Source: Parcubacteria group bacterium M6-OD1-1
GTDB lineage: Bacteria; Patescibacteriota; Minisyncoccia; GWC2-36-17; M10-OD1-4
NCBI GenBank assembly: GCA_003056085.1
Contig: LSNK01000001.1
Span: 152,729 to 216,728 of the forward strand
Length of the DNA: 64,000 bases
Direction of reading: 5' to 3'
A program made the translations under genes and the position numbers. Below, in pieces: positions 2,095 to 20,747 of the stretch (the stretch's first letter is position 1; each line of letters opens with the position of its first letter). The notes beneath the pieces were generated by a model. It saw nothing but the letters and a program-made list of their open reading frames with translations, searched no databases and was not told the origin of the DNA.

Positions 2095-3678
2095 CTATAA
2101 TCTACCATGTGTCTCGAGTATTTTCTCAACCTGTTCTTGTGTAAGCGACAGCCAAGGAGAGTTATCAGGATTGGAAGCTGCGGCAGCTGGACTTTCTCCT
2201 TGATTCCACCATTTTGCTTGAAAAGGCACACCATCAAAAAGTACACGATTGCCAGCATTGTATATTACTGTTCCAGACCAATTCTGGTATGTGCCCACTG
2301 GTAATGTTGGTGGCTGAATTGGTTTTTCGCCTGGCAAAACAGGTCCAATCAATTTCCATGATGTTTCCCATAATTGTAAGACCGGATTATCTGGCAGGTC
2401 ACCTCTTGTCCACCACTTTGCCTCATAGACATTACCGCGCCATACTATTTTTGTTCCTCTCGGATATGCTCCGGTTTCTTTCCAGACTTGATATGGACTT
2501 TTTTTAGGATTATCAACTACTTGATAGTTGATCTCAGAATCTTCTACTGTTAATAATTTAGCATTTTGCATAAGGTCTCCATCAAAACCAGCGCTTAGAC
2601 TCTTTGTAAAAGCAAATTGAGGATATGATACTCCGCTACATGCATCAGAAACAACCTTTACATTAACATAGTTTTCTCCGCACGGAATATCTCTATTAGC
2701 TGACCACATTGACATTCGACCAGCGCCTTGATTATATGCAAATAGATTAAGCATCTTAGCATCCTCCAATGTAAAGATCTCTTCCAAAAAATCATTTTGA
2801 CCAATCATTGGAGTTGCACCAATTTTTTGCCATAATGAATTACTACTCAAGCTTATTCCTGCTTGTTTATATAAAACTCCCAATTGACGATGGCTCTCAA
2901 TCAATGCTATTTTTGATGCCTCAAACATTGAATCTTCTTGGTCGCGGCTGGCACCATAATCCATAGTCATTACATTAACTCCGGATAAGTCAACTCCACT
3001 CGATAACATCTGAGTTATAACATCCGTACCTTCCTTCGTCATACCTTGCGGAGACACTGGTAACGTCAGCCAGATAGATAGATCTTCTTCGTTATCTCGA
3101 TAGTACTTTTGTAGCTGTGCAATGACATCCGCACGGCGCTTAGACGCATCAATGTCTACTAATCCCTGATTTTCAAGATCTAAATCTATCGTATTGATAT
3201 TATAATGTTCTATAACAGACTTGTAAGCATCAAATAATTCTTTTTCATCGGTACATTTAAGAGCAAGTTCAGAATTTAGCGCACCACCAAAAGAAATTGC
3301 TATTCTACCTCCCTGTTGTTGAAGTCTAGCAATTCTACGATCAAGATCGAGAGATACTGCCGCCTCACTCATTGTATAATATCCTCCCCAAGTAGGAATA
3401 CAGGGATCCATTGCATCAGAGACAATGAAAGAAAGAATAACATCAGATTTTGTATTTAATCCTAATTTTTCAAATGCGTAAGTAGGTGTGGATGTTACGT
3501 CTACGTATGCAGCAAACCATGGACCATATTCAGCCCTAGATTTATTCTCCTGCCACCCCTCAAAACTAAGAGACACACCATAAATAAGGCCAATAAAAAT
3601 AACAATAACATACACTAATCTTAGGAGAGAGAGTCGTCTTTTTGGTTCGCTATTTATTTGTGTGCCAGAATTTTTCAT
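2095..3678 (-). CDS. Membrane-anchored GH18 chitinase-like hydrolase with two C-terminal CBM5/12 chitin-binding domains
   Basis: N-terminal TM helix, SFGG, catalytic IDLDLE (DxDxE), VNVMTMDYG, and two AKWW(T/N)xG CBM motifs. Confidence 0.9.
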   Translation of the reverse strand: MKNSGTQINSEPKRRLSLLRLVYVIVIFIGLIYGVSLSFEGWQENKSRAEYGPWFAAYVDVTSTPTYAFEKLGLNTKSDVILSFIVSDAMDPCIPTWGGYYTMSEAAVSLDLDRRIARLQQQGGRIAISFGGALNSELALKCTDEKELFDAYKSVIEHYNINTIDLDLENQGLVDIDASKRRADVIAQLQKYYRDNEEDLSIWLTLPVSPQGMTKEGTDVITQMLSSGVDLSGVNVMTMDYGASRDQEDSMFEASKIALIESHRQLGVLYKQAGISLSSNSLWQKIGATPMIGQNDFLEEIFTLEDAKMLNLFAYNQGAGRMSMWSANRDIPCGENYVNVKVVSDACSGVSYPQFAFTKSLSAGFDGDLMQNAKLLTVEDSEINYQVVDNPKKSPYQVWKETGAYPRGTKIVWRGNVYEAKWWTRGDLPDNPVLQLWETSWKLIGPVLPGEKPIQPPTLPVGTYQNWSGTVIYNAGNRVLFDGVPFQAKWWNQGESPAAAASNPDNSPWLSLTQEQVEKILETHGRL

Positions 3679-3684
3679 ATTGTA

Positions 3685-5913
3685 TTAGCTATTTCTATTT
3701 ACTAATATTTTTCTCCATTTTAATTTTGGTATAATTTTGATTAATTTATGTAATAACTCTTCCTGAGGAATCTCTACATAAAGCATATCCTTAAAAGCAA
3801 GCCAAATATCAACGATTAAATTTTTAAATCCAATATATGCAACAATTGCCCATAAAGCAGCAAAAGCATTAAATCCAGCAAATGCTGCATTACCCCAATT
3901 TTCACCTTCAATGTTCCGCCACAATGTGAAAATTGAAAAGCTAACAATAAGTATTGGTGCTATTAAATACGGCCATGCCGTAGCTGTTCTATTTTTAATC
4001 TTAGGGGTTCTGGCAAATGGTATTTTTTTGGTTGTTATTGCTTGCTGTAAAGACTTAAGCGTTCCTGCAATATTTACTGGAAGCAATATCAGATTAAAAC
4101 CATAAATACGCATGATGTCACTATATTTATAACGACAGTATTTTAAATCCATAGACATGGCTAAAAAATAAGGTGCCGCAGCAAGTAGTACAAGCGGACT
4201 TAATAATCGTCCATCGTATGGATATGCTAAAAGAAATATCAAACCAATATTTGACCATGCTATTGATGACATATAATTGGCTCTAATCAAAAATTCAAGC
4301 TTCGACAATGGTCTGCCTTCGTGTTTTAGTTTATTAAATAATTTCAATAATTTTGGAAAAATTAGCAATCCCCCATTTGCCCAGCGCTGACGCTGCACAA
4401 CTAAAGATCCGAAATCAGATGGTGTTGCACTATAACTCAAACGCTCTGGATAGTTAACTAATCTCCAGTCATGAAGTGCTAAATCAATGCTTGATTCGGT
4501 GTCTTCTATAACCGTATGATCTTGCACATATCTTTTTATTTCAAACCCACCAATCCATTCTTTTTCAACAATATCCTCAAGAGCATTTTTTCGTATGACA
4601 GCATTAGCTCCAACCCAAAAAGCCGCATTGTAATAACTCATTCCCTGATGAATAATGTGTTGGATATCAGTCGTGGCACCAGACAATCTCTCAAGGCGAG
4701 ATGGAGCCCCTCTAAATGAAGAATACGGTGTTTGTACAACAGCAACATCAGCATTGTTAGGCTGTTGTAAAAAATAGACCAAACGCAAGCAATATTCTCG
4801 TAGTAATATAGAATCAGCATCTAATGTAAGTATAAAATCACTATCCCTAACGATTAGGTCAGTACTCTTTTTATCTTTAGTCGGCATTAAAATAGTCCCT
4901 TCAAGCGACTGTTCTTTTCTATATGTACCTCCCATGAGTCCGATATATGAATTGAGATTCATTGCCTTGTTTAATTCATGAGACAAAGAAATATACCTTT
5001 TTCGTTCAAATAGTTCTATCTTTACACCAAATATCCATACAAGCCTATTATATAGTTGTTCTATACGAGTCTTAGAAAATTGAGTACCTTGCTTTTGCGA
5101 GACTATCAGTTCTTCCCCTGTTTTTTGTAGGTCTTTGGCTAGTTCACGTAAAATTTGATCTGCAAAAAACACATCAACGTGATCATCAATGACCTCTTTC
5201 TCTGCTAAGCTTTCCAGCCACTGGGCTGCCCACATATACTGCTCAGATACTTTTAAAACAGCATTTCCTACAGATTTTCTATCTTTAAAATTACTCCCTT
5301 TAAACTGGGTCAGTATTTTATTAAAACGTTTATATGGTTCAGCTAAAAGAGCTTCTATCTCACTGCTTAATGCATGCGTCTCTTCGATTCTATCTCTATC
5401 TTCTGGACGAACCTTAAAAGGATCGTCATCGAGCAACAGGACTACACGAATATCCGGATATTCTTGAAGCGCTGCGGATAGTAATGTTTTTCGAATAACC
5501 TGAACTTCTTCACTATATGAGGGAACTAAAACAGTTATTGATGGTTGGTGGGTATAAAAATGTTCATCAAGTAAACGTTGAGGAGTACGAATATGCTTTT
5601 TAAAACGTTGTAAGGCGCCTTGTCGTGCAATCAAATACACTAATGCAGATAGGGTTAAAAAAGATACAATAACAGAATAGCCAAAAACTTCCACCGTAAA
5701 TTGATAATTTTGGGGACCATCAATAAGTTGGCGAATAATCACCGAAGTGATATACATCAACCAAAATAGTATTGTTAGTACAATTGCTATCCTACTAAAA
5801 GCTATTGCAAAATCCGAGGGCTTTTCATGAAGGATAGATAACACAGGCATCTCTTTTTCAGAACCCCATTGTCTTTTATAAAAATCCTGCTTGTTACGAT
5901 ATTTTTTATTCAC
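3685..5913 (-). CDS. Processive GT2 glycosyltransferase (cellulose/chitin synthase-like)
   Basis: DDD, DADS, VQTP, IEDT and QRQRW motifs, with N- and C-terminal TM helices. Confidence 0.9.
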   Translation of the reverse strand: MNKKYRNKQDFYKRQWGSEKEMPVLSILHEKPSDFAIAFSRIAIVLTILFWLMYITSVIIRQLIDGPQNYQFTVEVFGYSVIVSFLTLSALVYLIARQGALQRFKKHIRTPQRLLDEHFYTHQPSITVLVPSYSEEVQVIRKTLLSAALQEYPDIRVVLLLDDDPFKVRPEDRDRIEETHALSSEIEALLAEPYKRFNKILTQFKGSNFKDRKSVGNAVLKVSEQYMWAAQWLESLAEKEVIDDHVDVFFADQILRELAKDLQKTGEELIVSQKQGTQFSKTRIEQLYNRLVWIFGVKIELFERKRYISLSHELNKAMNLNSYIGLMGGTYRKEQSLEGTILMPTKDKKSTDLIVRDSDFILTLDADSILLREYCLRLVYFLQQPNNADVAVVQTPYSSFRGAPSRLERLSGATTDIQHIIHQGMSYYNAAFWVGANAVIRKNALEDIVEKEWIGGFEIKRYVQDHTVIEDTESSIDLALHDWRLVNYPERLSYSATPSDFGSLVVQRQRWANGGLLIFPKLLKLFNKLKHEGRPLSKLEFLIRANYMSSIAWSNIGLIFLLAYPYDGRLLSPLVLLAAAPYFLAMSMDLKYCRYKYSDIMRIYGFNLILLPVNIAGTLKSLQQAITTKKIPFARTPKIKNRTATAWPYLIAPILIVSFSIFTLWRNIEGENWGNAAFAGFNAFAALWAIVAYIGFKNLIVDIWLAFKDMLYVEIPQEELLHKLIKIIPKLKWRKILVNRNS

Positions 5914-7912: not shown

Positions 7913-8579
7913 ATGAAACCAATATATCTACAATTTAACTGCAAGGAATCTAATGAGCTGGACATGCGTCAAGCTGATGCAATTTTAAAGTATAAGCCTG
8001 ATATCATAATTCTTGAGTATCCGAACAACAACAAAACTCCTAACCTGCCTCTTAATAAATATTCCGCTTTAAAAAAGCCAAAAAACTTAGTAAAAAAACG
8101 CCTCAAAAAGTTTTCTGATAAAGTTTTAAAAATTCATCCCTGGGCTGAAGCAGACACTATAATGTGGAAGAATGTTGCGAGCCTTTGGGAAAAAGATCAT
8201 CAAGTTTTAATATATTCAGTAGATGCCCCAAACGAGCTGACAGAAGAACTGCGAGAAGTATGGAACTATACATATCCATGTATTAAAAAAAAATTGGATA
8301 TGGTGGGTAAGAATATACTTGCGTGAGAAGATTATGGCAAAAAACATTCAATGGATATTAGACAACTACAAAGAAAAGAAAGAGCCTAAAGTTTTAGTAT
8401 TTTTACAAAGCTTTCATTGGGATCATGTAAAATTTTTACTAAACAATCCATCTAAAAATAAGATATGGAACTACTATTTCGGAAATTTTTCTGAAATAGA
8501 CAAACAAAGCATCGGAAACAAAATAAAAAATATAAACAAGGTATTTTATAAATATTGGAGTAAAATATCTGATTTTTAA
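7913..8579 (+). pseudogene. Hypothetical protein split by a +1 frameshift in an A9 run (8285-8293)
   Basis: Removing one A joins 7913..8326 and 8319..8579 into one frame (CIKKNWIWWVRIYLREKIMAKNI). Confidence 0.7.
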
Positions 8580-8621
8580 TATACAGTAAACTTTTTGGAT
8601 TCAGCTTAAGGATGAATCCTC

Positions 8622-8660
8622 CACCAAACGCTCCAAATACACCATTTGGAGCGTTTGGTG
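8622..8660. terminator. Long perfect hairpin between convergent genes
   Basis: CACCAAACGCTCCAAAT-ACACC-ATTTGGAGCGTTTGGTG. Confidence 0.55.
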
Positions 8661-8673
8661 CATTATAAGAGAG

Positions 8674-8755
8674 AAAGGTGGAGAAATGTGTCAGGTACCT
8701 TTTATTTTATTAGAGTAAGAAAAGATATCATGAAAAAGGTAGCAGGTATCTTTTT
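8674..8755 (+). repeat. Degenerate REP-like cluster (partial + 8684-8703 + 8735-8755)
   Basis: AAATGTGTCAGGTACCTTTT and AAAGGTAGCAGGTATCTTTT; same layout as 6181-6261. Confidence 0.75.
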
Positions 8756-8831
8756 TCCTAAGAATTTAATAAATAGCCAGCTCATTTCGTAGTGAAAATA
8801 ATAGAGCAAAACCAAAGAAATCCTTTCCTTT

Positions 8832-9878
8832 TTAATTAAAATAATTATTTACAGCGTCTTCAAATTGCTCGATAAATATTTTTTTAAAATAAAAAATATT
8901 ATTTATCTCATAGAATAATAAGCTTGCCTTTTTGTATTCCCCAACATCTACAATCCTATAAGAAAATGGTATTGAATTATGTGCTAATAAAATAGCATTT
9001 GAAAGCATACGAGCTGTTCTTTTATTTCCATCCTCAAAAGCCTGAATATATGAAATTAAAATTAACCCAAGAAAAGCTTTTTCAAAAAATAATTCTTTTT
9101 TATTTATTAGGTCAATCATTCTTTCTAAGACTTCCTTAAGTTGAAATAAATTATCCAATGGCTTATATTTTGTAGCAGTAATACCCACCGCATTATTCCT
9201 AATATTTTTTGTAATATTAAGTTTTTTGGTTAAAACAGAATGAATATATTCAATATCAGAATAATTTAATTTTTTAAATCTCTCTTTGTTTAAAATAGAC
9301 TCATTAAAAGCATCTTTATGATTAAGAATCATTTGAGTCTCTTTTTCCGTTTTTCCTTTCCCAACAATATTTTCCTTAATCAAAGCTTCCGTACTTAAAA
9401 GTGAGTAAGTATTTCCCTCTATGACTGAAGATTTCCAAGAAAATTCAATCATTATTCTTTCAAATTCTTTATTTATAAGAGTTTGACTATCATATTCAGA
9501 AAAATTTTTTATAAACTCCCTTTGTAATTTTTCAATTTTTGCCTTTTCTTCTTTAGTGAAAATATCACCTTCCAAAATATTAAAAATTTCAAAATTAAAA
9601 CTTTTTTTTACTTCTCTTTCTGTGTATGGAATAGAAAAATATTTTTTAGCATCAATTTTATTTATAATTTCATAATTTTCAGACAAAGAGTAGATTACGC
9701 CTCTTCCTAATCCTTTTTTAAAAATTAAAAACTTTTCTTCTAGTTCTTTTAAATCTCTTTGTAGTGTTTTTCTATCAATATCCACACTCAAAAAAGACAG
9801 AATATCAGACACCGATACTTCTGTCCTTTTCTTTATAAAAGTAATAATTTTATCTTGTCTTTTTTGCTTTTTATTCAT
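8832..9878 (-). CDS. Fic/Doc family protein with N-terminal DeoR-like wHTH
   Basis: RKTLQRDLKELE HTH, SSVIEGN, and non-canonical Fic motif QAFEDGNKRTAR. Confidence 0.9.
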   Translation of the reverse strand: MNKKQKRQDKIITFIKKRTEVSVSDILSFLSVDIDRKTLQRDLKELEEKFLIFKKGLGRGVIYSLSENYEIINKIDAKKYFSIPYTEREVKKSFNFEIFNILEGDIFTKEEKAKIEKLQREFIKNFSEYDSQTLINKEFERIMIEFSWKSSVIEGNTYSLLSTEALIKENIVGKGKTEKETQMILNHKDAFNESILNKERFKKLNYSDIEYIHSVLTKKLNITKNIRNNAVGITATKYKPLDNLFQLKEVLERMIDLINKKELFFEKAFLGLILISYIQAFEDGNKRTARMLSNAILLAHNSIPFSYRIVDVGEYKKASLLFYEINNIFYFKKIFIEQFEDAVNNYFN

Positions 9879-9897
9879 ATATAAACAATATAATTAA

Positions 9898-10002
9898 TTG
9901 CGACATTTTACAATACTAATTGCGACACCTTTAAAGTATTTATTCATAAAATCGTTATTTATAGCAGTTTTATTGCGACATTTTATAATACTAATTGCGA
10001 CA
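9898..10002. promoter_or_regulatory. Four TTGCGACA boxes in two 30-bp direct repeats, putative operator of the wHTH-Fic gene
   Basis: TTGCGACATTTTA(C/T)AATACTAATTGCGACA at 9898-9927 and 9973-10002. Confidence 0.65.
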
Positions 10003-10036
10003 TATTATAACTCCCCTTGAGAATACCTTTTCCAAA

Positions 10037-10068
10037 AAAGGTGTCAGAAAAGGTGTCAGGTACCTTTT
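10037..10068 (+). repeat. REP-like partial copy plus full copy (10049-10068)
   Basis: AAAGGTGTCAG-A-AAAGGTGTCAGGTACCTTTT. Confidence 0.85.
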
Positions 10069-10107
10069 TTCACTCATTTATAAAAATAATATTTTTTTTC
10101 ATATAGA

Positions 10108-10365
10108 TTATTTAATATTTTTTGAAGAATTATCTGATATTTTTACTTTTAGAAAAACGAGTATTATAAATAGAATAATAAATAATAAGAAAGAAATTGC
10201 ATAATAAGGAACTGCGTGATCTAAAAGATTATATACATAAGGACAACCAGGATTATTATCGCCAGAATTAGGCATTATAACTTTTCGAACTATTAATTGC
10301 ATACCGATTAAAATACCGATATTAACCCAAAATAAAATATATATAATTTTATAAATTTTTATCAT
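10108..10365 (-). CDS. Small membrane protein (2 TM)
   Basis: Two hydrophobic segments; 4-bp ATGA overlap with the upstream gene. Confidence 0.6.
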   Translation of the reverse strand: MIKIYKIIYILFWVNIGILIGMQLIVRKVIMPNSGDNNPGCPYVYNLLDHAVPYYAISFLLFIILFIILVFLKVKISDNSSKNIK

Positions 10366-11402
10366 TTCTTAAAACAACCGATAAACCAAGCTCTTTTTAG
10401 AGTTATCTCCCCTTTTTCTGCACCAATAGAAAGATACTTTCCGTCTCTACCGTTCCCACTCTTAATTGTTACATTATCACAAGAATTTATTTTGTCTAAA
10501 TATTTTTCTTTAAAAGTATTATACGCATAATTTTTCTTTTTTTGAATATCCGTACAAGCATTAGCATATTCTCCACAGTACTCAAAACTCACACCATACA
10601 AAGACTCCTCTTTTCCAGTTTCCAGATTAATCTTTGTAAGCCTCGCTGCAGCAACTCCTGCATCACCCATAGAATAAATAAGTAAAAGTGAATTTTTATC
10701 TGGCATATAATCAACTACTGTTACAATTCCAACAGGTGAGGTTTCTATTTTGTCAACTATAATTTTATTTTGTTTTGATTTATTATTATAAACCCCCAAA
10801 ACACACGACATTCTTTCTGAACAACCATTTCTTAAATAAAATACTAAATTACCTGAAACATAAAAATCATTTATATTGGAATTTTCAGAAAATTCCAATT
10901 GATTAGTATTTTTAGTTTTTATATCAAAATAATTTATCTTTCCCTTCTTATTTATAAAATAAATTTTATCCCCCTCAAGTCTTGGCTTAGCTATCCATGG
11001 CTCTGTTGAAACAAAACCAATTTTTTGTTCTGTCTCAGTTTTTGTATTAAAAATAGAAAAGAAAAAAGCGTTTTCGTAATGATTGTTTTCTGTTGGTGTT
11101 CTTTCTTCTTTTAAAATAAGTAATCCTGAGTTTAAATTCTCAAAAGAAATGATCGGAAAACTTTTTATAAGTTTATCTATTTTAAGTTTAGTGCTTGTTG
11201 CTATGTTAAAAAAAGGCGGTGAAATATTGACAATATTTTTAGGAGGCTCAACTCCAATACCTCTATTATAAACTGAATCTGCACTTGAAGCTTTTTTGAA
11301 AACTGCCAAATTATACTTTTCAATAAAATAAAAAACACTAAAAATAATCAATCCGGAAATAATCAATGCTCCAATTATTAAAATATTACTTTTATTAAAC
11401 AT
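10362..11402 (-). CDS. Hypothetical membrane-anchored extracellular protein, possibly beta-propeller
   Basis: N-terminal TM helix, beta-rich repeats and paired Cys. Confidence 0.75.
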   Translation of the reverse strand: MFNKSNILIIGALIISGLIIFSVFYFIEKYNLAVFKKASSADSVYNRGIGVEPPKNIVNISPPFFNIATSTKLKIDKLIKSFPIISFENLNSGLLILKEERTPTENNHYENAFFFSIFNTKTETEQKIGFVSTEPWIAKPRLEGDKIYFINKKGKINYFDIKTKNTNQLEFSENSNINDFYVSGNLVFYLRNGCSERMSCVLGVYNNKSKQNKIIVDKIETSPVGIVTVVDYMPDKNSLLLIYSMGDAGVAAARLTKINLETGKEESLYGVSFEYCGEYANACTDIQKKKNYAYNTFKEKYLDKINSCDNVTIKSGNGRDGKYLSIGAEKGEITLKRAWFIGCFKK

Positions 11403-11427
11403 AAATTAACTAAGCTTATATATTAGA

Positions 11428-12348
11428 TTAACTTTCTAAAACATTAAATCCATTAAATATGGCATCACACATAAAATCTTCCAATAAACTGGAATCTCCA
11501 CTTTGTTGAGACTTATTTAAATAATTATAATAAAATCTTTTATTTTCTTGCTTAATAACTGCTGGCGGTAAATTTCTTCTCAAAAACATCGCTACCACAA
11601 TAAGACGCCCAATTCTTCCGTTGCCATCAGAAAAAGGATGAATTTTCTCAAAATCACTATGTATTTGAGAAATATGTTTTACTACATCATCTTCTTCTTT
11701 ATTTATATTTTTTATTAGCCTTACTACTAACTCTGGGACTTTCAAATAATTAGCAGTAGGAATATTGGCTCCGACAATTCTCACCCCATGATTTCTATAA
11801 AAACCCGCATCATCTCTAATGCTATTCATTAAAATGCTATGTAATTTTAAAATTAATAATTCTGTAATTTTAAAATTTGGCTTAATCTGTTTAAATAAAA
11901 ACTGTAAAGCTGTTTGATGATTTTTAGCCTCTAATTGTTCAATTAAATTTCTGTTTTTCAAAGATATGTTCCGAAATAAAATATCTGCAGTTTCATTTTC
12001 AGTTAAAGTACTGCCTTCTATGCTGTTTGTATTGTAAGTTAAAGATAAAATAAACTGATCATAAATATCTTTACGACTGATGATTTCTTTTAATATGTTT
12101 GTGTATTTTTTTGATTTATTGTAAATAACATCTTTTTTTGCTTGTAAAATATTATCTGGAATAATTTTTTGCCCTGTGTATTTTTTATACAATTCATCAA
12201 TCAACTCCCGCCTTCTTTTGTGAGGAACTGATTTGTTATTGATCCAGCTATTTAAAGTTGCAAAAGACACCTCCAGCTCATAAGCAATTTTTTCTTGAGT
12301 TAAGCCTGAAATTTGTTTAATTAATTTTAGTTTCTCTGATGTATTCAT
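11428..12348 (-). CDS. XRE-HTH/Fic family protein (AMPylase)
   Basis: N-terminal HTH (LTQEKIAYELEVSFATLNSW), TNSIEGS inhibitory helix and canonical HPFSDGNGRIGR. Confidence 0.92.
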   Translation of the reverse strand: MNTSEKLKLIKQISGLTQEKIAYELEVSFATLNSWINNKSVPHKRRRELIDELYKKYTGQKIIPDNILQAKKDVIYNKSKKYTNILKEIISRKDIYDQFILSLTYNTNSIEGSTLTENETADILFRNISLKNRNLIEQLEAKNHQTALQFLFKQIKPNFKITELLILKLHSILMNSIRDDAGFYRNHGVRIVGANIPTANYLKVPELVVRLIKNINKEEDDVVKHISQIHSDFEKIHPFSDGNGRIGRLIVVAMFLRRNLPPAVIKQENKRFYYNYLNKSQQSGDSSLLEDFMCDAIFNGFNVLES

Positions 12349-12357
12349 AATATCAGT

Positions 12358-12408
12358 ATATTATAGAACTTTATAAAGTTTGTCAAATTTAATAAACTTT
12401 ATAAAGTT
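12358..12408 (-). promoter_or_regulatory. Promoter (TTGACA-N17-TAATAT) with two palindromic operators AACTTTATAAAGTT
   Basis: Palindromes at 12367-12380 (inside the spacer) and 12395-12408. Confidence 0.7.
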
Positions 12409-12421
12409 TTAATTTAATACT

Positions 12422-12566
12422 CTCTAAGCAAAACAAAAAATCTTTCAATTTCTTGAAAGATTTTTTGTTTTATTGTTTTTCTGTCTTAAACAAATGTTAA
12501 AGCATTTCCTTTGCTGTCTCCTCTGCCTGTTCTGCCTATTCTGTGGACATAGTCGTTGTATGACTG
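12422..12566 (-). repeat. 145-bp direct repeat: duplicated 3' end and terminator of the DEAD-box helicase gene
   Basis: Base-for-base identical to 18305-18449. Confidence 0.95.
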
Positions 12567-12614
12567 CGTTTTGAGTTACTTTAAATAGTTGATATTTCAT
12601 GCAAATATTATAAA

Positions 12615-13112
12615 TTACTTTACAACAAACTTCTCAGATGCAATGTTAATAGAATAAGTTTTTTCCTCTTCAATTCTCTTAATTATTTTTGGAATATCTG
12701 GATCCCAAAATAAATCTTCCATGCTTTGTATTTTTTCGAGAGTAAACCAATCATATTCAAGATCTTCTGAATTTTCTATTAATCGTCCCGTTAGCTCCGA
12801 AATAAAGATTATCTTTACGGCATGCAAAACAATATCATTTTTATACTTTATTAATGGAAAAACACCTGCAAGTTCTTTTATTTTTACCTCAAGACCAGTT
12901 TCTTCTTCTGTCTCCCTCTTTGCTCCAATTATAATATCCTCTTCCATCTCAAGCCACCCTGAAGGAATGCTCCATTTTCCATTTTGATGAATTAGTAAGT
13001 ATTTATCATCTTTTACAACAACAGAGCCGACAATAATAAATGGCTGTGTGACACAGCGTTTGTTTCCTTGTTCTGTTTTAGTAACTATTTGTGGTTTATC
13101 TTTAGAATCCAT
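12615..13112 (-). CDS. NUDIX hydrolase
   Basis: Nudix box GWLEMEEDIIIGAKRETEEETGL. Confidence 0.92.
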   Translation of the reverse strand: MDSKDKPQIVTKTEQGNKRCVTQPFIIVGSVVVKDDKYLLIHQNGKWSIPSGWLEMEEDIIIGAKRETEEETGLEVKIKELAGVFPLIKYKNDIVLHAVKIIFISELTGRLIENSEDLEYDWFTLEKIQSMEDLFWDPDIPKIIKRIEEEKTYSINIASEKFVVK

Positions 13113-13114
13113 TT

Positions 13115-14056
13115 TTATTTTTTATTTAATATTATATTATAATATTTTTTTTCGGTATCATTGAATATTGTTTTCATCTCTTCTATGCAAGATTCTCCAT
13201 TTAACGCACTCAGAGGTAATATCAATATATTCTCATCTATAGTATTATAACACGGTTCAAATACACTTAAAAATATATTTAATTCATATAAACGTGTTGT
13301 TATCTTTTTTAAACACTTTTCATCACTTTCATTATTATGACTACCATACCTATCTATCCTTGATTTACATTTTAATAATGTTTGATGTAGTGCATAATAT
13401 GTATTATTAAAATTATCTTCTAAGTAACAGAAATCTTTACCATAGAGAACTATATTTCTATAGTAAGCAACAGAAATCTCATGCTTCGTCGCATCTTCAT
13501 GAACTACACCAGCATAAACGGTATCATTTACAGGAAAGTTTAAACTCATGTTATCTTCTCCATATACAAAATAATTAATATATTTTGCTTCGATATTTAG
13601 ATTACTTCTTAACTCTTCAGACACCAATACATTATCTAATGAATATGAAAATTCACTACCTTTAATAACAATTCCCAGATCTATATCGTCAGGAGCATAA
13701 TCCCTATATCCATAAACATAACTGCCGTATACGTAAATGGATATTATGTCCTCAATATTAAAATTAGGACATTTACTCATAACACTCTCAATAACAGAAT
13801 TTATATTTTCTTTTAATTTTAAAATTCTTCCAATTATCAATTTATTTTGATTGCTATCAAATACCCGATAATACGGATTTCTATTTTTCAAATTATCTAT
13901 AATATCTTTTTCTGAATCAAGACAGATATTTTCATTAGAAAAAATAAATAAGGGGTATTCATATTGATACCCCTTATTTAATTTATTATTATTTTCCTTT
14001 CTTATCTCTTTGATGATCTTCTCTGCGTAATTACGAGAGGACAATAAACTCCACAT
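13115..14056 (-). CDS. Pol-beta-superfamily nucleotidyltransferase-like protein (true start uncertain, probably downstream of 13945)
   Basis: IYVYGSYVYG...PDDIDLGIV (hG[S]-x-DxD) motif followed by a helical C-terminal domain. Confidence 0.7.
   Translation of the reverse strand: MWSLLSSRNYAEKIIKEIRKENNNKLNKGYQYEYPLFIFSNENICLDSEKDIIDNLKNRNPYYRVFDSNQNKLIIGRILKLKENINSVIESVMSKCPNFNIEDIISIYVYGSYVYGYRDYAPDDIDLGIVIKGSEFSYSLDNVLVSEELRSNLNIEAKYINYFVYGEDNMSLNFPVNDTVYAGVVHEDATKHEISVAYYRNIVLYGKDFCYLEDNFNNTYYALHQTLLKCKSRIDRYGSHNNESDEKCLKKITTRLYELNIFLSVFEPCYNTIDENILILPLSALNGESCIEEMKTIFNDTEKKYYNIILNKK
13945..13980 (-). terminator. 14-bp perfect hairpin plus T6 just after the ThiC-like gene
   Basis: TAAATAAGGGGTAT-N8-ATACCCCTTATTTA-TTTTTT on the - strand. 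Confidence 0.5.
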
Positions 14057-15108
14057 TTATCACACCCTCTTGAAAGCGCCTCTGGATCACAACTTTTTAT
14101 CAACGATCTTTTTTGCAGGACATCCCTATCTTCTTCCATCAAATCAGGAATACGAGCCATATCTCCAGAATGAACAGCTATTTTTGCAGACATTATACCC
14201 CTTTCAGAATCATCAAGCGTAGGAAATCCCTTATGCTCATTAGCTGGAATAGTTGTAATTTTGCCAACATTAAATCTAGCCGCCTCTGCCGCACCTATAG
14301 CAGATGCTATATAATCATACGAACCGCATACATCGGTTACAACTGGTCCAAGTAATTGAAACGGCACATAATCCCCATGAGTCTCCCTGATGCTACCAAT
14401 CATTTCGGCTATCATATGAAATGGATAATGACTCATCACCTCAACTATAGATAAAACTCCATTTTCTTTCAGAAAAGAATACATCTCCATCTGTTTTCCA
14501 ACCTCCCACAAATGAGATCTATCGTTAGCTTCAACTATCCCCGCAGCTCTAAAAGTAGAACCTATGTGAATAGTAGTATTATACTCCTTAGCCAAGTCAA
14601 TAATATCATCTAAAATAGGATAATAAGGATTATCTACTTTATGCTTTCTCATCGTTACAGCTAAGAGACCTCCTTGTCTTCCTGTTATAGGGATCAAACG
14701 ACCACTTGAATAGGTCTCGAGTTCTTCTCTAGTTCTTGGAGTAAAATTGATCGTCATATGGTCACCCCCTCCAAGAATAAAGCACTCAATTTCTTCAAGT
14801 AAAACGTCAGGATAAACTTTTGTTTTGTTTTCTATAAAAGGTAAATAGATGGGATTCATACCAACACCAATGTGTGGGTATTTCTCTTTAACATACCTCC
14901 AGAGTGGTTGTTTGAGCCTGATTGTACTAAGGTCGGTTATTGTATGAACTCCAAGCTTAGCAGCAAGATCTATTTTTTTCATCTCTTGATGCACCGAATC
15001 TTCATCTACTTTATTAGTCCCCACAATGAAATTTATCTTTGTAGTAGCTCCCTCTCCTACTTCCAAATTAACATCACCAAGCTTATTGCCAACAATTATC
15101 TTATTCAC
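14002..15108 (-). CDS. Divergent ThiC/Bza-family radical SAM enzyme
   Basis: TITDLS, NPIY, LGPVVTD, YDYIASAIGAA, EHKGFP, KIAVHSGD and C-terminal CDKCGVYC cluster motif. Several substrate-site motifs differ from ThiC. Confidence 0.85.
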   Translation of the reverse strand: MNKIIVGNKLGDVNLEVGEGATTKINFIVGTNKVDEDSVHQEMKKIDLAAKLGVHTITDLSTIRLKQPLWRYVKEKYPHIGVGMNPIYLPFIENKTKVYPDVLLEEIECFILGGGDHMTINFTPRTREELETYSSGRLIPITGRQGGLLAVTMRKHKVDNPYYPILDDIIDLAKEYNTTIHIGSTFRAAGIVEANDRSHLWEVGKQMEMYSFLKENGVLSIVEVMSHYPFHMIAEMIGSIRETHGDYVPFQLLGPVVTDVCGSYDYIASAIGAAEAARFNVGKITTIPANEHKGFPTLDDSERGIMSAKIAVHSGDMARIPDLMEEDRDVLQKRSLIKSCDPEALSRGCDKCGVYCPLVITQRRSSKR

Positions 15109-15123
15109 TATATTGTCTCCTAT

Positions 15124-15813
15124 TTAAAAGATGTTCTTATCAGAAAATACATCTATAATCCTATTGTGTACAGTTTCGATATCATCATTTCCATCTATAC
15201 GCATAAGATCATACTTATTGGTCAAGCGCTCAAATTCATACCTGTATTGCTTCAAAAATGTAATACTAGAAGTATCATACCCACGCATCGCAACTCGCTC
15301 ATCTGCGATTTTAGGATCAGTGTCCAACCAAAAATTTAATTTTGGAGGATCAAGATAGAGAAGGATATTTTTTACATGCTCATAAGTTTCATCGGAGCAT
15401 CCATTAGCCATAGCTCCAGCAAGCCAATCAAAAACGGATCTTGAAGAAACAATCGTAAATCCCGAGTTTACAACGGAATCAATCTTCTCCATTTTATTCC
15501 TTAGCACCTCAAAGCTTATTGCCACCATGTACGCATCTATGCCAAGCAACGCATGCCCAGACTTGATGCCCATGCTCTTACCTATTATGTAACTCATTTC
15601 AGAAACAAAGTATCTTGTCTCCTCATATCTTGCTACAGCAATACCCTTTTCCCTTCTTAGCCACCCACATAATAAATTCATTTGGGTGGTTTTACCAGCG
15701 CCATCAATACCAGAAAAACCTATATGTACACCATTATCACATTTCATGATAAGTCTCCTATATACCTGATTATTAAATTGGAAAAAAGCAATCTTACACA
15801 CAAGGAATACCAT
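15124..15813 (-). CDS. Thymidylate-kinase-like nucleoside monophosphate kinase (likely start 15747)
   Basis: P-loop GIDGAGKTT, IVSSRS (DR-motif variant), PKLNFWLDTDPKIADERV and IDGN. Confidence 0.85.
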   Translation of the reverse strand: MVFLVCKIAFFQFNNQVYRRLIMKCDNGVHIGFSGIDGAGKTTQMNLLCGWLRREKGIAVARYEETRYFVSEMSYIIGKSMGIKSGHALLGIDAYMVAISFEVLRNKMEKIDSVVNSGFTIVSSRSVFDWLAGAMANGCSDETYEHVKNILLYLDPPKLNFWLDTDPKIADERVAMRGYDTSSITFLKQYRYEFERLTNKYDLMRIDGNDDIETVHNRIIDVFSDKNIF

Positions 15814-15840
15814 GTTATAAGCTTCATGTCAATCAAATTT

Positions 15841-16135
15841 CTTAAATTAACACCTGAAATGCACACTATTAAAAACTTGATGCGGTGTTAAATAGTTAAG
15901 ACGTTTACGAGGTCTGTTATTTAACTTTCTAACAGCTCTTTTTACATCTTTATCCGTAATTGTAGCAAAAGAAGATCTTTTAGGAAAATATTGTCTTAAT
16001 AAGCCATTAACATTTTCATTAGCGCCTCTTTGTTGAGGTTTGCCTTTGTCTGCAAAATACACTAAAGCTCCCGTTTCTTGTTCTATAAATTTATGTTCTG
16101 CAAACTCACTTCCATTGTCGTAAGTTATTGTAAGG
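15841..16135 (-). mobile_element. IS30-family transposase 3' remnant with right end
   Basis: TITYDNGSEFA...QRGANENVNGLLRQYFPK...LNNRPRKRLNYLTP; IS30-like end GTGCATTTCAGGTGTTAATTTAAG. Confidence 0.9.
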
Positions 16136-16390
16136 CAACTGCCTTGTGGACAAATTCCAAAAAACCTCTTGTGTATTCTTTCATCAGTCTATTTCTCTTC
16201 TGTTGGTTAAATATTACATAGTGTTAACTCCAAGATAACTATACTTATATTTCACAACAAATCAACAATCTCCGCTGATCCATCCACCCATTTCCTTGTC
16301 TTATAAAGTATTTGATGCTATAAATCATATTGGTTTTAGAGGATGTTCTTTATATAAAAAATAAACAACTTAAACAAGGGGTATATCACT

Positions 16391-17851
16391 ATGTCAACAT
16401 CAGATATTTTTGAAATGGAAGACCTTATTTTTACAAACTCTACAGAACAAATCGTAACTGGAGGAAGAGATAAATTCCCTTTATTGTCTAAAGCATTCAA
16501 AGATATAAAGCAAATAGGCATTATCGGCTGGGGCTCTCAAGGTCCGGCGCAATCTCAAGACTTACGAGACTCACTGAAAAATACTGGGGTCAAAGTAAAG
16601 ATTGGACTTAGGGAAAACAGCTCATCTATGACAAAAGCCAGAAAAGCCGGCTTCACTGAAGAAAACGGCACTCTTGGTGAAATGTATGATGTTGTCGCTG
16701 AGTCAGATATGGTAATCTTGCTTATAGCAGATTCTGGTCAGGTTGCTGAGTACAAAAAGATATTCACAACAATGAAAAAAGGTGCTACTCTCGGTCTGTC
16801 TCATGGTTTTCTATTGGGACACTTGAAGAACGTTGGAGAGTATTTTCCAGACGATATAAACGTTGTAGGTGTTTGCCCTAAAGGTATGGGACCTTCTGTT
16901 CGTAGACTTTACGAGCAAGGTTCAGGTATCAACGATAGCTTTGCAGTGGAGTGTGACATAGATAGTCGCGCTACAGATATTGCTCTTGGCTGGGCAGTTG
17001 CACTGGGTGCTCCATGTATCTTTGAGACAACCCTGGAGATGGAGTATCGCAGTGATATCTTCGGCGAACGTGGTATCTTGCTCGGCGCCGTGCATGGAAT
17101 AGTTGAAGCACTCTATTATATTTTCTGCTTAAAAGGAGCGAGTAAAAAAGCTGCTTACAGACTGTCAGTAAAAAATATAACAGGTCCAATAAGCCATACT
17201 ATTTCTAAAAATGGAATAATTGGTGTTTACAACAGCCTCAATAGTGGCACCGATAAAGTAATCTTCCATGAAATGTACAAAGCTGCTTACACTCCTTCAT
17301 TGGCACTTCTCAGTGAAATATACGATGAAGTAGAAAATGGGAATGAAATAAGAAGTGTCATAATGGCGGGGAGAAGAAATAATGAATTCCCTATGGGCAA
17401 TATCGACAAAAGCGAGATGTGGGATACAGTAGGTAAAACAGTAAGAGAAACAAGAGGCGACAAAGAGATGCCAATATACCCCATGACTGCTGGTTTGTAT
17501 TGCGCTGTTATGATGGCGCAGATAGACTTATTAACAAAGAGAGGTCATTGTGTGAGTGAAATATGCAATGAATCAGTTATTGAAGCTGTTGATTCGCTCA
17601 ATCCTTATATGCATCATGCAGGGATTGCTCACATGATAGACAACTGTTCGACCACGGCGCGCCTTGGTGCGAGAAAATGGGGACCTCGCTTCTTTGCACT
17701 TATAATGCAAGAAATTAAACCTTCTTTTTCTAGTAGATTAATCGCGGATAATGACTTGATCGATGCCTTTGTGAATCATCCAATTCATAACGATCTCAAA
17801 GTATGCAGTGAACGCAGACCACCCATTGATATATCTCTCAACATTGATTAG
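16391..17851 (+). CDS. ilvC: Ketol-acid reductoisomerase, long class II (plant-like) form
   Basis: IKQIGIIGWGSQGPAQ, LSHGFLLGH, CPKGMGPSVRRLY, SDIFGERGILLG, NESVIEAVDSLNP and CSTTARLG. Confidence 0.93.
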   Translation: MSTSDIFEMEDLIFTNSTEQIVTGGRDKFPLLSKAFKDIKQIGIIGWGSQGPAQSQDLRDSLKNTGVKVKIGLRENSSSMTKARKAGFTEENGTLGEMYDVVAESDMVILLIADSGQVAEYKKIFTTMKKGATLGLSHGFLLGHLKNVGEYFPDDINVVGVCPKGMGPSVRRLYEQGSGINDSFAVECDIDSRATDIALGWAVALGAPCIFETTLEMEYRSDIFGERGILLGAVHGIVEALYYIFCLKGASKKAAYRLSVKNITGPISHTISKNGIIGVYNSLNSGTDKVIFHEMYKAAYTPSLALLSEIYDEVENGNEIRSVIMAGRRNNEFPMGNIDKSEMWDTVGKTVRETRGDKEMPIYPMTAGLYCAVMMAQIDLLTKRGHCVSEICNESVIEAVDSLNPYMHHAGIAHMIDNCSTTARLGARKWGPRFFALIMQEIKPSFSSRLIADNDLIDAFVNHPIHNDLKVCSERRPPIDISLNID

Positions 17852-18304
17852 TTGTTTTTTATTGTCTATTTAGTCCACAAGGACCTCTTTACAAAGAGGC
17901 CCTTTTTTATTTCTTTAAAAATTTACAACATCTAATCCTACGATAAGAGACTGACCAATATTATACATCCTATGATAAAATACAGATATGGAAAGAAGAT
18001 GTTTCTATATATAATATTATTGGAATTGTATTAATTATTTTTGACATTTTCTTATTAAAAATAAAGTGAATATAAAACATGCCTATTTGTTTAAAAGTAA
18101 TAAGATTGAATAAAAATATTAAAAAAAAATTTCTGCTATTTATTACATGATACATACCTATTAATATCTATTCTAAGAACTATTCCTATATAAATATAAC
18201 ACAAAAGAGATCAGAAGCTTTTTCGTCATCTTTTTCATTCTTTTCCTTCTTTCTGACAACTTTTCTTCCATTTTTTTCTTTTAAAAAATATCATTTAACA
18301 CCCC

Positions 18305-18449
18305 CTCTAAGCAAAACAAAAAATCTTTCAATTTCTTGAAAGATTTTTTGTTTTATTGTTTTTCTGTCTTAAACAAATGTTAAAGCATTTCCTTTGCTGT
18401 CTCCTCTGCCTGTTCTGCCTATTCTGTGGACATAGTCGTTGTATGACTG
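18305..18449 (-). repeat. 145-bp direct repeat, resident copy (helicase 3' end and terminator)
   Basis: Identical to 12422-12566. Confidence 0.95.
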
Positions 18450-19622
18450 AGGTATTGTGTAGTTTATAACATGAGTGATGTCTTTAATATCAAGACCTCT
18501 TGCCGCTACGTCTGTTGCAACTAAAATATTTATTCTGCTTTGTCTGAAGTGCGTTAAAGACCTCTGTCTTTGATGCTGTCTTTTGTCTCCATGAATAGAA
18601 TCAACCTTAAATCCATTTCCTCTTAAGTTGACTGTCAGTTCTTCTACATCTTTTTTAGTTTCTGAAAAGACGAGAACTTTTTTAAACTCAGGGTCAGAAA
18701 GAATACCTTTTAATGTATCTATTTTTGAAGCGTTTTTAACTCTTACAATATCTTGGTCAACATTGTCTGCTGTTTTGCCGACTTGAACAGACACCGTAAC
18801 GGGATTACGCAAAAATTGGTCTGTTATTCTTTTAATTTGATCCGGCATTGTAGCAGAAAAGAAAAGCGTCTGTCTTTTTGAATCAGTTTTGCTTAAAATT
18901 TCTCTTATGTCATCTATAAATCCCATATCTAACATCCTGTCTATTTCATCCACCACTACATTATTAAAAGATCTCAAATTAAGAGCGCCTCTTTTTTCAA
19001 GGTCTTTTAATCTCCCTGGTGTGCCTATTATGAAATTTGGATTTCTTTTTAAATCTCTTAACTGTTTGTGTATCGGCATACCTCCTATACATGTTGTTGA
19101 GTAAAGATTCATACCGTAAGCAAAAAGCTTGAACTCGGTTTCTATTTGGGAACAAAGCTCGCGCGTTGGAGCGATAATCAAAACTTTTTCCGTGCGGCTG
19201 CCGGCTACTTTATTTATCTGAGGCAATAAAAATGCTCCTGTCTTGCCTGTTCCTGTGTTTGCAAGCCCAACAACATCTTTCCCTTCAAGTATATACGGGA
19301 TGGATTGGTCTTGTATGGGAGTTGGTTTAACAAATTTTCTTCTTTTTATATTTTCCTGTATCTTTTCAGAAAAATTAAAATCAGCAAACAAATTATTTAC
19401 TTTTATTTTCTCGCTTTTTACGCCGGAAGCCTTTTTGACAAACTTAGATATGTCTATGTTGTTTGACCTTCTTTTAAACCCTCTTCCTTTGTATCCTCCG
19501 CTTCTTTTACCGGAACGATGCTTTGAAAAGCTGCCGTACGATTTTGAGTTTGTTGATGACCTGTTTTTATTACCACCAAATCTATTACCAGACCTCTGTC
19601 TGGATTTATTATTATTATTCAT
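18369..19622 (-). CDS. DEAD-box RNA helicase (DEID variant)
   Basis: PTPIQ, TGTGKT, PTREL, TPGR, DEID, SAT, ARGLD and HRIGRTGR. Confidence 0.96.
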   Translation of the reverse strand: MNNNNKSRQRSGNRFGGNKNRSSTNSKSYGSFSKHRSGKRSGGYKGRGFKRRSNNIDISKFVKKASGVKSEKIKVNNLFADFNFSEKIQENIKRRKFVKPTPIQDQSIPYILEGKDVVGLANTGTGKTGAFLLPQINKVAGSRTEKVLIIAPTRELCSQIETEFKLFAYGMNLYSTTCIGGMPIHKQLRDLKRNPNFIIGTPGRLKDLEKRGALNLRSFNNVVVDEIDRMLDMGFIDDIREILSKTDSKRQTLFFSATMPDQIKRITDQFLRNPVTVSVQVGKTADNVDQDIVRVKNASKIDTLKGILSDPEFKKVLVFSETKKDVEELTVNLRGNGFKVDSIHGDKRQHQRQRSLTHFRQSRINILVATDVAARGLDIKDITHVINYTIPQSYNDYVHRIGRTGRGDSKGNALTFV

Positions 19623-19955
19623 AATTTTCCTTTCCCTGTCTGTAAGTTGGTTTCAGACAGTAATTAACACTTCCTAATCCCTAAAATCTTTATTTAGAGA
19701 CTTCAATTGCTGTATAAAAAATGAAATGCTAATTACCGAATGTATCTTAAGATGAGAGGTTTTTAAGATACGCTTTAATAGATTCTCTCTTTATAGAACA
19801 ATTTTAATTAAAATTAGGACTTAAGCACTTAAGTCCTAAAAAATTATTAACTTTCAGTACCATAGCATAAACTTTAAAAAATAGCAAGGAGTTGCGCTGT
19901 GAGCTTAAAAACAATGGATTTTTTATTTTTATATTAAATATGATATACTTTTTGT

Positions 19956-20747
19956 ATGATTGAAGGTTTTATATTTGGAACATTACAGGGAATAGCAGAA
20001 TGGCTTCCGGTTAGTTCGGAGGGGGTTATTTTTTTGGTGCAGACAAACTTTTTTTCAAATTTAACTATTGAACAAACAATAAGATTTGCGCTCTTTTTGC
20101 ATTTGGGGACCGCTCTTGCCGCTTTGCTGTATTTTTGGAAAGATTTTTGGAATCTTTTGAAAACTTTTTTCAACTATAAAAATGAAACCGGTGAAAACAA
20201 GCTTGTTTTGAATTTTCTGATAATCTCCACTTTAATAAGCGGAACCTTAGGGATTTTACTGCTTAAAACCTTAATAAATATTGAGGGGGCTGTTGAACTT
20301 TCAGGGAAAACCTTAACTTTCTTGATAGGTATATTGCTTTTGTTTACCGCATACCTGCAGCTTAAGAAAAAATCTGAAACCTCCAGAAACTTAAACGACT
20401 TAAAACCATCTGACGGTATTTGGCTTGGCATAGCACAAGGTATCGCAGTGCTTCCCGGGCTCTCACGCTCAGGAATGACTGTTTCTGTACTGCTTTTGAG
20501 AAAATTTGACGATGTTTATGCCTTGAAACTGAGTTTTTTAATGAGTGTACCTATAGTGATTGCGGGAAATATAATTTTAAACATTAAAGATTTTTCTTTA
20601 TCATTGGAAAATCTAATCGGCTTTTTCTTTGCATTTTTATTTGGAATTTTAACCATCAAATTTTTGCTTGAGTTTGCAAGAAAAGTAAATTTTGGATACT
20701 TTATATTGATATTTGGAATTTTAATGATGATTTCTATCTTTTTCTAA
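19956..20747 (+). CDS. uppP: Undecaprenyl-diphosphatase
   Basis: QGIAEWLPVSSEG and PGLSRSG motifs; multi-TM. Confidence 0.93.
   Translation: MIEGFIFGTLQGIAEWLPVSSEGVIFLVQTNFFSNLTIEQTIRFALFLHLGTALAALLYFWKDFWNLLKTFFNYKNETGENKLVLNFLIISTLISGTLGILLLKTLINIEGAVELSGKTLTFLIGILLLFTAYLQLKKKSETSRNLNDLKPSDGIWLGIAQGIAVLPGLSRSGMTVSVLLLRKFDDVYALKLSFLMSVPIVIAGNIILNIKDFSLSLENLIGFFFAFLFGILTIKFLLEFARKVNFGYFILIFGILMMISIFF

Follow-up and report, generated by a model that had tools for sequence, protein, structure and literature searches.

A recurring, mobile gene cassette around a ThiC/Bza-type radical SAM variant in a Parcubacteria genome

The 64,000-nucleotide stretch of contig LSNK01000001.1 analysed here (the window), from Parcubacteria group bacterium M6-OD1-1, carries a real, recurring and mobile cassette built around a variant of the radical S-adenosylmethionine (SAM) enzymes of the ThiC/Bza type, whose gene is accompanied by genes for a kinase of the thymidylate kinase (TMK) fold, a nucleotidyltransferase (NTase) and a Nudix hydrolase. 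The ThiC-like enzyme is not ThiC, and it is well supported that the cassette is a pathway for something other than hydroxymethylpyrimidine phosphate (HMP-P). With about even confidence, it is read as a modified-nucleotide pathway, in which radical remodelling of the sugar of a nucleotide other than aminoimidazole ribonucleotide (AIR) is followed by phosphorylation, nucleotidyl transfer and Nudix clean-up. No publication on this clade or cassette was found in the literature, most subscription papers and all supplements lying outside the scope of that search.

Four tightly packed, co-oriented genes had been described in a first-pass annotation of the window, and a check of its open reading frames (ORFs) located all four, intact, closely packed and on the minus strand, where that annotation had placed them (Table 1). 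The kinase and ThiC-like genes are separated by 15 nt, the ThiC-like and NTase genes overlap by 55 nt, and 2 nt lie between the NTase and Nudix genes. The kinase start is more likely the ATG at 15747, which is preceded by an AGGAG site and agrees with the N-termini of homologues; the NTase start within the overlap has a GAGGG motif resembling a ribosome site, and the extension is also present in a 79%-identical relative (P0201). Pfam matches were obtained for the kinase (PF02223, E-value 4e-14), the ThiC-like enzyme (PF01964, 3e-57) and the Nudix hydrolase (PF00293, 1e-14), and the Pol-beta nucleotidyltransferase match of the transferase (0.002) is below cut-off. A promoter scan returned 22 sites against 21.8 expected by chance and was uninformative, and Rfam gave no match, with no thiamine pyrophosphate (TPP) riboswitch at 10000-20500. 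A hairpin comparable to that in the 5′ part of the NTase gene (Table 1) occurs in the NTase 5′ coding region of locus L001 (about 2660-2690), thus in 2 of 6 loci with the window counted, and attenuation is possible.

Table 1. Features of the cassette and of the island on which it lies
Feature	Coordinates	Strand	Remarks
TMK-fold nucleoside-monophosphate kinase, cassette-specific subfamily	15124-15747	-	ORF open from 15813
Short ThiC-fold radical SAM enzyme, 368 aa	14002-15108	-	PF01964 and model
Pol-beta-type NTase (GS...DxD), C-terminal four-helix bundle, ANT(4')/AadA-like architecture	13115-14056	-	
Nudix hydrolase, Nudix box intact	12615-13112	-	PF00293
Terminator-like hairpin with T-run, in NTase 5′ coding part	13945-13980	-	z -4.1
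Left 145-bp repeat	12422-12566		Orphan copy of DEAD-box helicase 3′ end, with terminator-like hairpin 12430-12471
Right 145-bp repeat	18305-18449		Overlaps 3′ end of intact helicase gene 18369-19622
IS30-family transposase remnant, C-terminal part only	15850-16188	-	NF033563, E 4e-32; just upstream of operon
Ketol-acid reductoisomerase (KARI), island passenger	16391-17851	+	

The ThiC-like enzyme compared with ThiC and the Bza enzymes

The predicted model of the ThiC-like enzyme (predicted local distance difference test score, pLDDT, 94) superposes on Arabidopsis ThiC (PDB 4s26) with a Z-score of 41 and an rmsd of 2.3 Å over 363 residues, the alignment beginning at residue 195 of 4s26, in keeping with the first-pass remark that the N-terminal extension is absent. 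At an identity of about 29%, it has in common with ThiC (PF01964; TIGR00190, NF009895; PDB 4S25-4S29, 3EPM-3EPO) the TIM-barrel, the His-His metal site, the SAM-binding residues, the C-terminal CX2CX3C cluster loop, E422 and most of the phosphate clamp, whereas the N-terminal domain and the thi context are missing and the His-to-cluster linker measures 57 residues instead of 76-80. The Fe-S cysteines and both metal histidines are kept, as had been noted, and the cysteines C349, C352 and C356 of the cluster loop are joined by an invariant fourth one not found in ThiC, C340.

The residues of ThiC that contact SAM, the metal and AIR were taken from PMC4389238 and were compared by alignment across 42 family members. 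G230, L259, R343, R386, E422, H426, E489 and H490 are kept in 42/42; replacements in all 42 affect N228 (to I), H322 (to N), G344 (to Q), D383 (to S or A), Y449 (to Q), C483 (to T) and M572 (to K), and Y286 is retained by the window's own subclade (17 members). The motif changes pointed out at first pass (NANIG to NFIVG, TIH to TIN, SRGG to GRQGG, GDGLR to GSTFR) are all present and align with Arabidopsis ThiC as described there, the first G of GRQGG being S in 37 of the 42 members. A new Lys283 is invariant across the family, and Asn121, Gln145, Gln251, Thr285 and Lys351 are further new invariant residues. The loss of C483 and Y449, the new lysine, the fourth cysteine and the repeat-bounded island described below all go beyond the earlier annotation.

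The ThiC mutants D383A, N228D and C474S form no HMP-P, still consume the substrate and release shunt products, which are sugar-derived for D383A and N228D and, for CcThiC C474S, include one traced by its authors to the pyrimidine radical (PMC11117688). C474 of CcThiC corresponds to C483 of Arabidopsis in the alignment made here, and to judge by its residues the ThiC-like clade appears to be a natural counterpart of these cascade-diverting mutants.

Against the ThiC equivalog models, the enzyme scored 194, 169 and 142 bits for cut-offs of 410, 460 and 650, respectively, compared with 647 and 619 bits for a canonical control, and against the BzaB model (TIGR04386) it scored 136 bits for a cut-off of 700. 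A FastTree tree of 169 rows (from 193, after removal of 11 partial and 13 duplicate sequences; one named BzaF, no named BzaA) placed the family in a clade of its own (support 1.0, stem 0.95) outside true ThiC and BzaF, in line with the divergent paralogue proposed at first pass. BzaF, BzaA and BzaB, the 5-hydroxybenzimidazole synthases, are likewise ThiC paralogues with a different product, and N228 and D383 are altered in BzaF too; unlike the ThiC-like enzyme, however, BzaF keeps H322, Y449 and C483, and its position in the tree is another. The sister of the family (0.97) is a more populous group, at least 269 strong, whose proteins are also short and have four Cys. D383 and C483 are replaced throughout an extensive radiation of short proteins of the ThiC fold that comprises several clades (P0051-P0196, P0226-P0342); one clade holds at least 269 proteins, from cyanobacteria, Bacteroidota and Proteobacteria, which carry the PF01964 label and are called ThiC where named.

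In the host genome (766 kb, 97% complete), searches for PurM, ThiE, SufBD and SAM synthetase came back empty, and that for ThiD gave a single match below cut-off, so that the absence of thiE and thiD reported at first pass for the window extends, with that qualification for ThiD, to the whole genome; as PurM is not matched, AIR is probably not made by the host. A NifU/IscU scaffold and two other, canonical radical SAM genes are present. In another genome, G423, a family member was found together with a complete canonical thiM-thiE-thiC-thiL operon on a different contig, and it is this finding, together with the lack of PurM and ThiE matches in the host, that shows the ThiC-like enzyme not to be ThiC. 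A divergent but true ThiC, for which the PF01964 match, the fold and the naming of relatives in databases (for example 'phosphomethylpyrimidine synthase') might speak, is hardly credible given scores far below every ThiC cut-off, the lost catalytic residues and the two kinds of gene in G423.

Recurrence of the cassette and its partner enzymes

A protein search, counting the protein of the window itself, yielded 45 family sequences with identities of 47-100%, beyond which identity falls to about 30%. Scans of genomes and metagenomes gave 25 loci, 8 of them of the window's subclade; since L006 equals L007 and L008 and L021 are 99% identical, these correspond to 6 independent loci, or 7 with the window. 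The kinase gene lies directly upstream of the ThiC-like gene in 7/7 independent loci (gaps of 1-42 nt) and the NTase gene directly downstream in all 6 with sequence there (L018 showing the NTase start only and L025 being cut), while a Nudix orthologue is found in 4 of 5, two of which have it in the opposite orientation; the exception, L006, has a nucleotide pyrophosphatase gene upstream. The joint occurrence in other genomes on which the first-pass reading depended was thus borne out for kinase, ThiC-like enzyme and NTase, and for the Nudix gene in these four loci. Flanking genes vary among the loci and pairwise identities co-vary in Mantel permutations (90/5040 for kinase and ThiC-like enzyme, 6/120 for ThiC-like enzyme and NTase, 2/120 for kinase and NTase), a test that is weak with 5-7 loci. 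The cassette is horizontally mobile and its genes travel together. Among same-phylum genomes, the ThiC-like profile matched 0 of 400 and the kinase subfamily 0 of 300, and the NTase was found in 0 of 60 relatives. Other Nanoarchaeota were rejected as carriers, as 9 of 400 genomes matched weakly and the 7 checked were canonical ThiC (two genomes marked unpublished were counted in this tally only). At L006, a 74-bp repeat (3822-3895 and 5328-5401) flanks a gene for a HicB-like protein on the upstream side, and a DinB-type polymerase gene and putative LexA and integrase genes lie downstream (11283-14805).

By alignment, the cassette kinase retains the base-stacking Phe, the P-loop Asp and the Arg of the DR motif, the matching residues of which bind dTMP in human TMK (PMC1950558). 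Its P-loop is intact, the DR motif has become SR in 7/7 loci, and DW and Gly are invariant at the TMK Ser/Thr and Tyr positions. It falls outside the dTMP kinases as defined by TIGR00041 (57 bits, cut-off 83) and is 24% identical to the separate housekeeping TMK of the host. On the general understanding that the pocket Tyr of TMK helps to select deoxyribose, a kinase with Gly in its place may accept an altered sugar or a ribo sugar.

A search of 5.8 billion proteins between 155 and 560 aa in length found just 8 that belong to the NTase family, and GS...DxD is invariant in 11/11 sequences. A Pol-beta domain followed by a helical bundle is shared with ANT(4')-I/KNTase, AAD(9) and AadA, the aminoglycoside nucleotidyltransferases (ANT), from which the cassette enzyme differs by identities of 12-15%, TM-scores of 0.31-0.40 and a third acid that is mostly absent. 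A broad search with the NTase was swamped by helical-bundle matches and was uninformative.

The best solved-structure match of the Nudix hydrolase was 2b0v and the second E. coli NudJ/YmfB (E 5e-15); the Nudix box is intact as in these hydrolases. NudJ is a broad clean-up enzyme, whose substrates include di- and triphosphates of nucleosides and, in vitro, HMP-PP and TPP (PMC12359138). Pur7, a Nudix enzyme likened here by role and not by sequence, converts nucleoside triphosphate (NTP) to nucleoside monophosphate (NMP) in puromycin synthesis and gives a precedent for trimming an analogue NTP within a biosynthetic cluster (PMC11641026). The in vitro dephosphorylation of HMP-PP and TPP, with NudJ among the best structural matches, and the pyrimidine-radical shunt product of CcThiC C474S could together suggest an HMP-like pyrimidine or thiamine antivitamin pathway, in which the kinase would stand in ThiD's place and the NudJ-like enzyme would confer resistance. 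This is very unlikely, as D383, needed for ring expansion, is Ser or Ala in 42/42 members, and neither an AIR supply, a ThiE match nor a TPP riboswitch in the region scanned was found.

Candidate pathway and competing explanations

In the proposed modified-nucleotide pathway, the metal bound by His227/His292 and the C-terminal Fe-S cluster would be the site of SAM cleavage, and the resulting 5′-deoxyadenosyl radical would abstract hydrogen from C5′, or from close to it, in a 5′-phosphoribosyl substrate held by Arg187, Tyr88, Arg144 and Glu223. HMP-P would be out of reach because the counterparts of Asp383, Asn228, Tyr449 and Cys483 are lost, and the cascade would halt at a ring-opened, dehydrated or epimerised sugar, with the new Asn121, Gln145, Gln251, Lys283, Thr285 and Lys351 perhaps reading a different base or extra phosphates. 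The TMK-fold kinase would then give the diphosphate and host kinases the triphosphate, the ANT-like transferase would use or cap the product by attaching a nucleotide to an acceptor, and the NudJ-like Nudix enzyme would remove surplus di- and triphosphate, shielding the producing cell. As to purpose, which is the least supported step, an accessory role in conflict or as an antimetabolite source is most likely; the polymorphism of the island was counted in its favour, as accessory conflict genes are often polymorphic.

The gene linkage of viperin with a kinase is a precedent for this arrangement (10.1101/2023.09.13.557418). In prokaryotic viperins, too, the gene of a radical SAM enzyme is accompanied by that of an NMP kinase from the TMK superfamily, here CMPK2-like, and the pair offers a works-like model for making a nucleotide analogue; the cassette, by contrast, is ThiC-type with a PF01964 match and none to PF04055, and adds an NTase and a Nudix enzyme. 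The likeness in linked kinases (7/7 loci) is analogy, not membership, and PADLOC gave no viperin match for the cassette. That viperin-like immunity was invented independently on the ThiC scaffold, with four enzymes that make, activate, deploy and detoxify a sugar-rebuilt nucleotide analogue on a polymorphic island, and with a four-Cys cluster site new to radical SAM chemistry, is conceivable though rather doubtful.

Several observations weigh against the modified-nucleotide pathway. The remaining 17 loci form or resemble a second, sister subclade, largely archaeal where named and without cassette kinase or NTase, which has the same invariant active-site set except for Tyr286 to Ile; 5 of these loci have a ROK sugar kinase just downstream, 4 a DUF362 gene and 3 a phosphomutase with a PfkB-like protein, and these sugar-enzyme neighbours point to a sugar phosphate as substrate. 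The NTase model (pLDDT 86) has its best Foldseek matches in ANT(4'), AAD(9) and AadA at a weak E-value of about 1e-4, and the third carboxylate at the usual strand is Asp in only 2/11 sequences, another invariant Asp lying in a low-confidence loop. As no SAM synthetase was matched, SAM must be imported. PADLOC identified no known defence system in the cassette apart from a generic Nudix match, and, among 46 proteins, with few flanking genes available, only Fic, helicase and methyltransferase matches and one PDC-M05A-like match; no effector or exporter gene lies in the cassette. The non-canonical nucleotide proposed at first pass is retained as the likeliest reading from the partner genes, a reading which the sister subclade, with the same active site beside sugar kinases, tempers.

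Those neighbours lend themselves to an unusual-sugar pathway, in which a sugar phosphate would undergo rearrangement or deoxygenation by the radical enzyme, while kinase, NTase and Nudix enzyme would make and recycle a nucleoside-diphosphate (NDP) sugar for a surface glycan or small metabolite. A phosphotransfer and sugar setting (ROK kinase, PfkB-like protein, phosphomutase, NTP-transferase, epimerase, DUF362) beside the same invariant active site, glycosylation genes at 2 sister-subclade loci and an NTase resembling aminosugar-adenylylating enzymes all point that way; nevertheless, the cassette kinase keeps the TMK base-stacking Phe and Arg, no glycosyltransferase or epimerase gene adjoins any of the 7 cassette loci, and most of the 17 sister-subclade loci, many of them short contigs, show no sugar genes in the available DNA, so that we consider it unlikely, if a serious contender. 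In DPANN-type archaea and other microbes, L002 (3134-14201), L003 (5172-13715), L004 (7287-14654), L014 and L015 carry the ThiC-like gene with ROK, PfkB-like, phosphomutase and DUF362 genes, L002 also having aminotransferase, inositol monophosphatase, dehydrogenase and transaldolase genes; these clusters presumably resemble an aminocyclitol or NDP-sugar pathway.

A salvage or detoxification route, degrading or recycling a damaged or modified nucleotide taken from the host cell, would suit a bacterium that has no PurM match and must scavenge nucleotides, the clean-up role of NudJ (PMC12359138) and the nucleotide pyrophosphatase that stands in for the Nudix enzyme at L006. It is nonetheless improbable, as catabolism gives little reason for an NTase of its own and the cassette is both extremely rare (0/400 same-phylum genomes) and polymorphic within one population.

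A modifying enzyme, an NMP kinase and an NTP hydrolase form a known immune logic. The cassette could follow it as a Kongming- or toxin-like circuit, in which the radical enzyme and the kinase would make a modified NTP and the NTase would sense it or place it on tRNA or another macromolecule, thereby arresting the cell, the Nudix enzyme acting as brake. The atypical third carboxylate of the NTase, the terminator-like hairpin at its 5′ end in 2/6 loci and language-model look-alikes of the NTase in phage-rich clusters (a lead only) fit such a circuit, which the missing PADLOC match, the lack of a recognised effector, the loss of the Nudix gene in 1/5 loci and the absence of a defence-island context among the few flanking genes available nevertheless make quite improbable. 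Oligomerisation and signalling of the type of the cGAS/DncV-like nucleotidyltransferases (CD-NTases), raised at first pass, are disfavoured by the fold of the NTase, which is closest to that of aminoglycoside adenylyltransferases: CdnD ranked below the ANT enzymes in Foldseek (E 0.005), and no PADLOC profile for CD-NTases or cyclic-oligonucleotide-based anti-phage signalling systems (CBASS) matched it. Nor did the antiviral role suggested there gain direct support, since searches revealed neither a PADLOC system nor a viral copy, and no cassette locus has an effector gene. Viral copies were seen neither for the ThiC-like family nor for a sister-clade protein or the NTase; 64 viral TMK loci were distant (mostly 20-30%) and none had a ThiC-like or NTase gene; phage and plasmid records held only distant matches to the ThiC-like enzyme (about 26-36%), annotated as ThiC or BzaF where annotated, and the NTase had no match in plasmids. 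A defence role is without support from any direct test and is unproven.

The island, its surroundings and implications

The cassette lies on an island of 5,883 bp between 145-bp direct repeats that are identical at 145/145 positions. The hairpin in the left repeat would, by its sequence, end the operon, and no integrase was seen between the repeats. Four public sequencing runs were compared: in X4 and X6, contigs pass from one repeat to the other with exactly the 5,883 bases missing, so that the empty site exists as DNA and the cassette is accessory and polymorphic. The ThiC-like and kinase genes are practically uncovered in X6, and X1 and X4 cover the island and its flanks; contig depths are rough and do not represent cell shares, and X1 may be the window's source.

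KARI was rejected as a pathway member, being absent beside the cassette at other loci. In all four runs, position 16267 is connected directly to 17959 on one contig (27 letters on the short side), which suggests a multicopy element without KARI, into which KARI may have been inserted. To the left of the island, a low-GC (27%) variable region (7913-12348) contains two helix-turn-helix (HTH)-Fic genes, and a diverged allele of the gene at 10362-11402 is present in the sequencing runs; further away, a GT2 glycosyltransferase adjoins a GH18 protein with chitin-binding modules (2095-5913).

Database labels such as 'phosphomethylpyrimidine synthase' would wrongly credit ultra-small bacteria and archaea with thiamine synthesis. 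The ThiC cascade is among the most complex radical cascades known, and in this fold family only ThiC and the Bza enzymes are, as far as was found, characterised; the partner genes shortlist the substrates, which puts new radical chemistry within direct experimental reach, four small proteins being all that is required. A nucleotide analogue, should the product prove to be one, would provide a new scaffold for antimetabolites or antivirals, and the viperin-like reading, if true, would open up a large unannotated radiation of ThiC-fold enzymes that are now mislabelled as ThiC.

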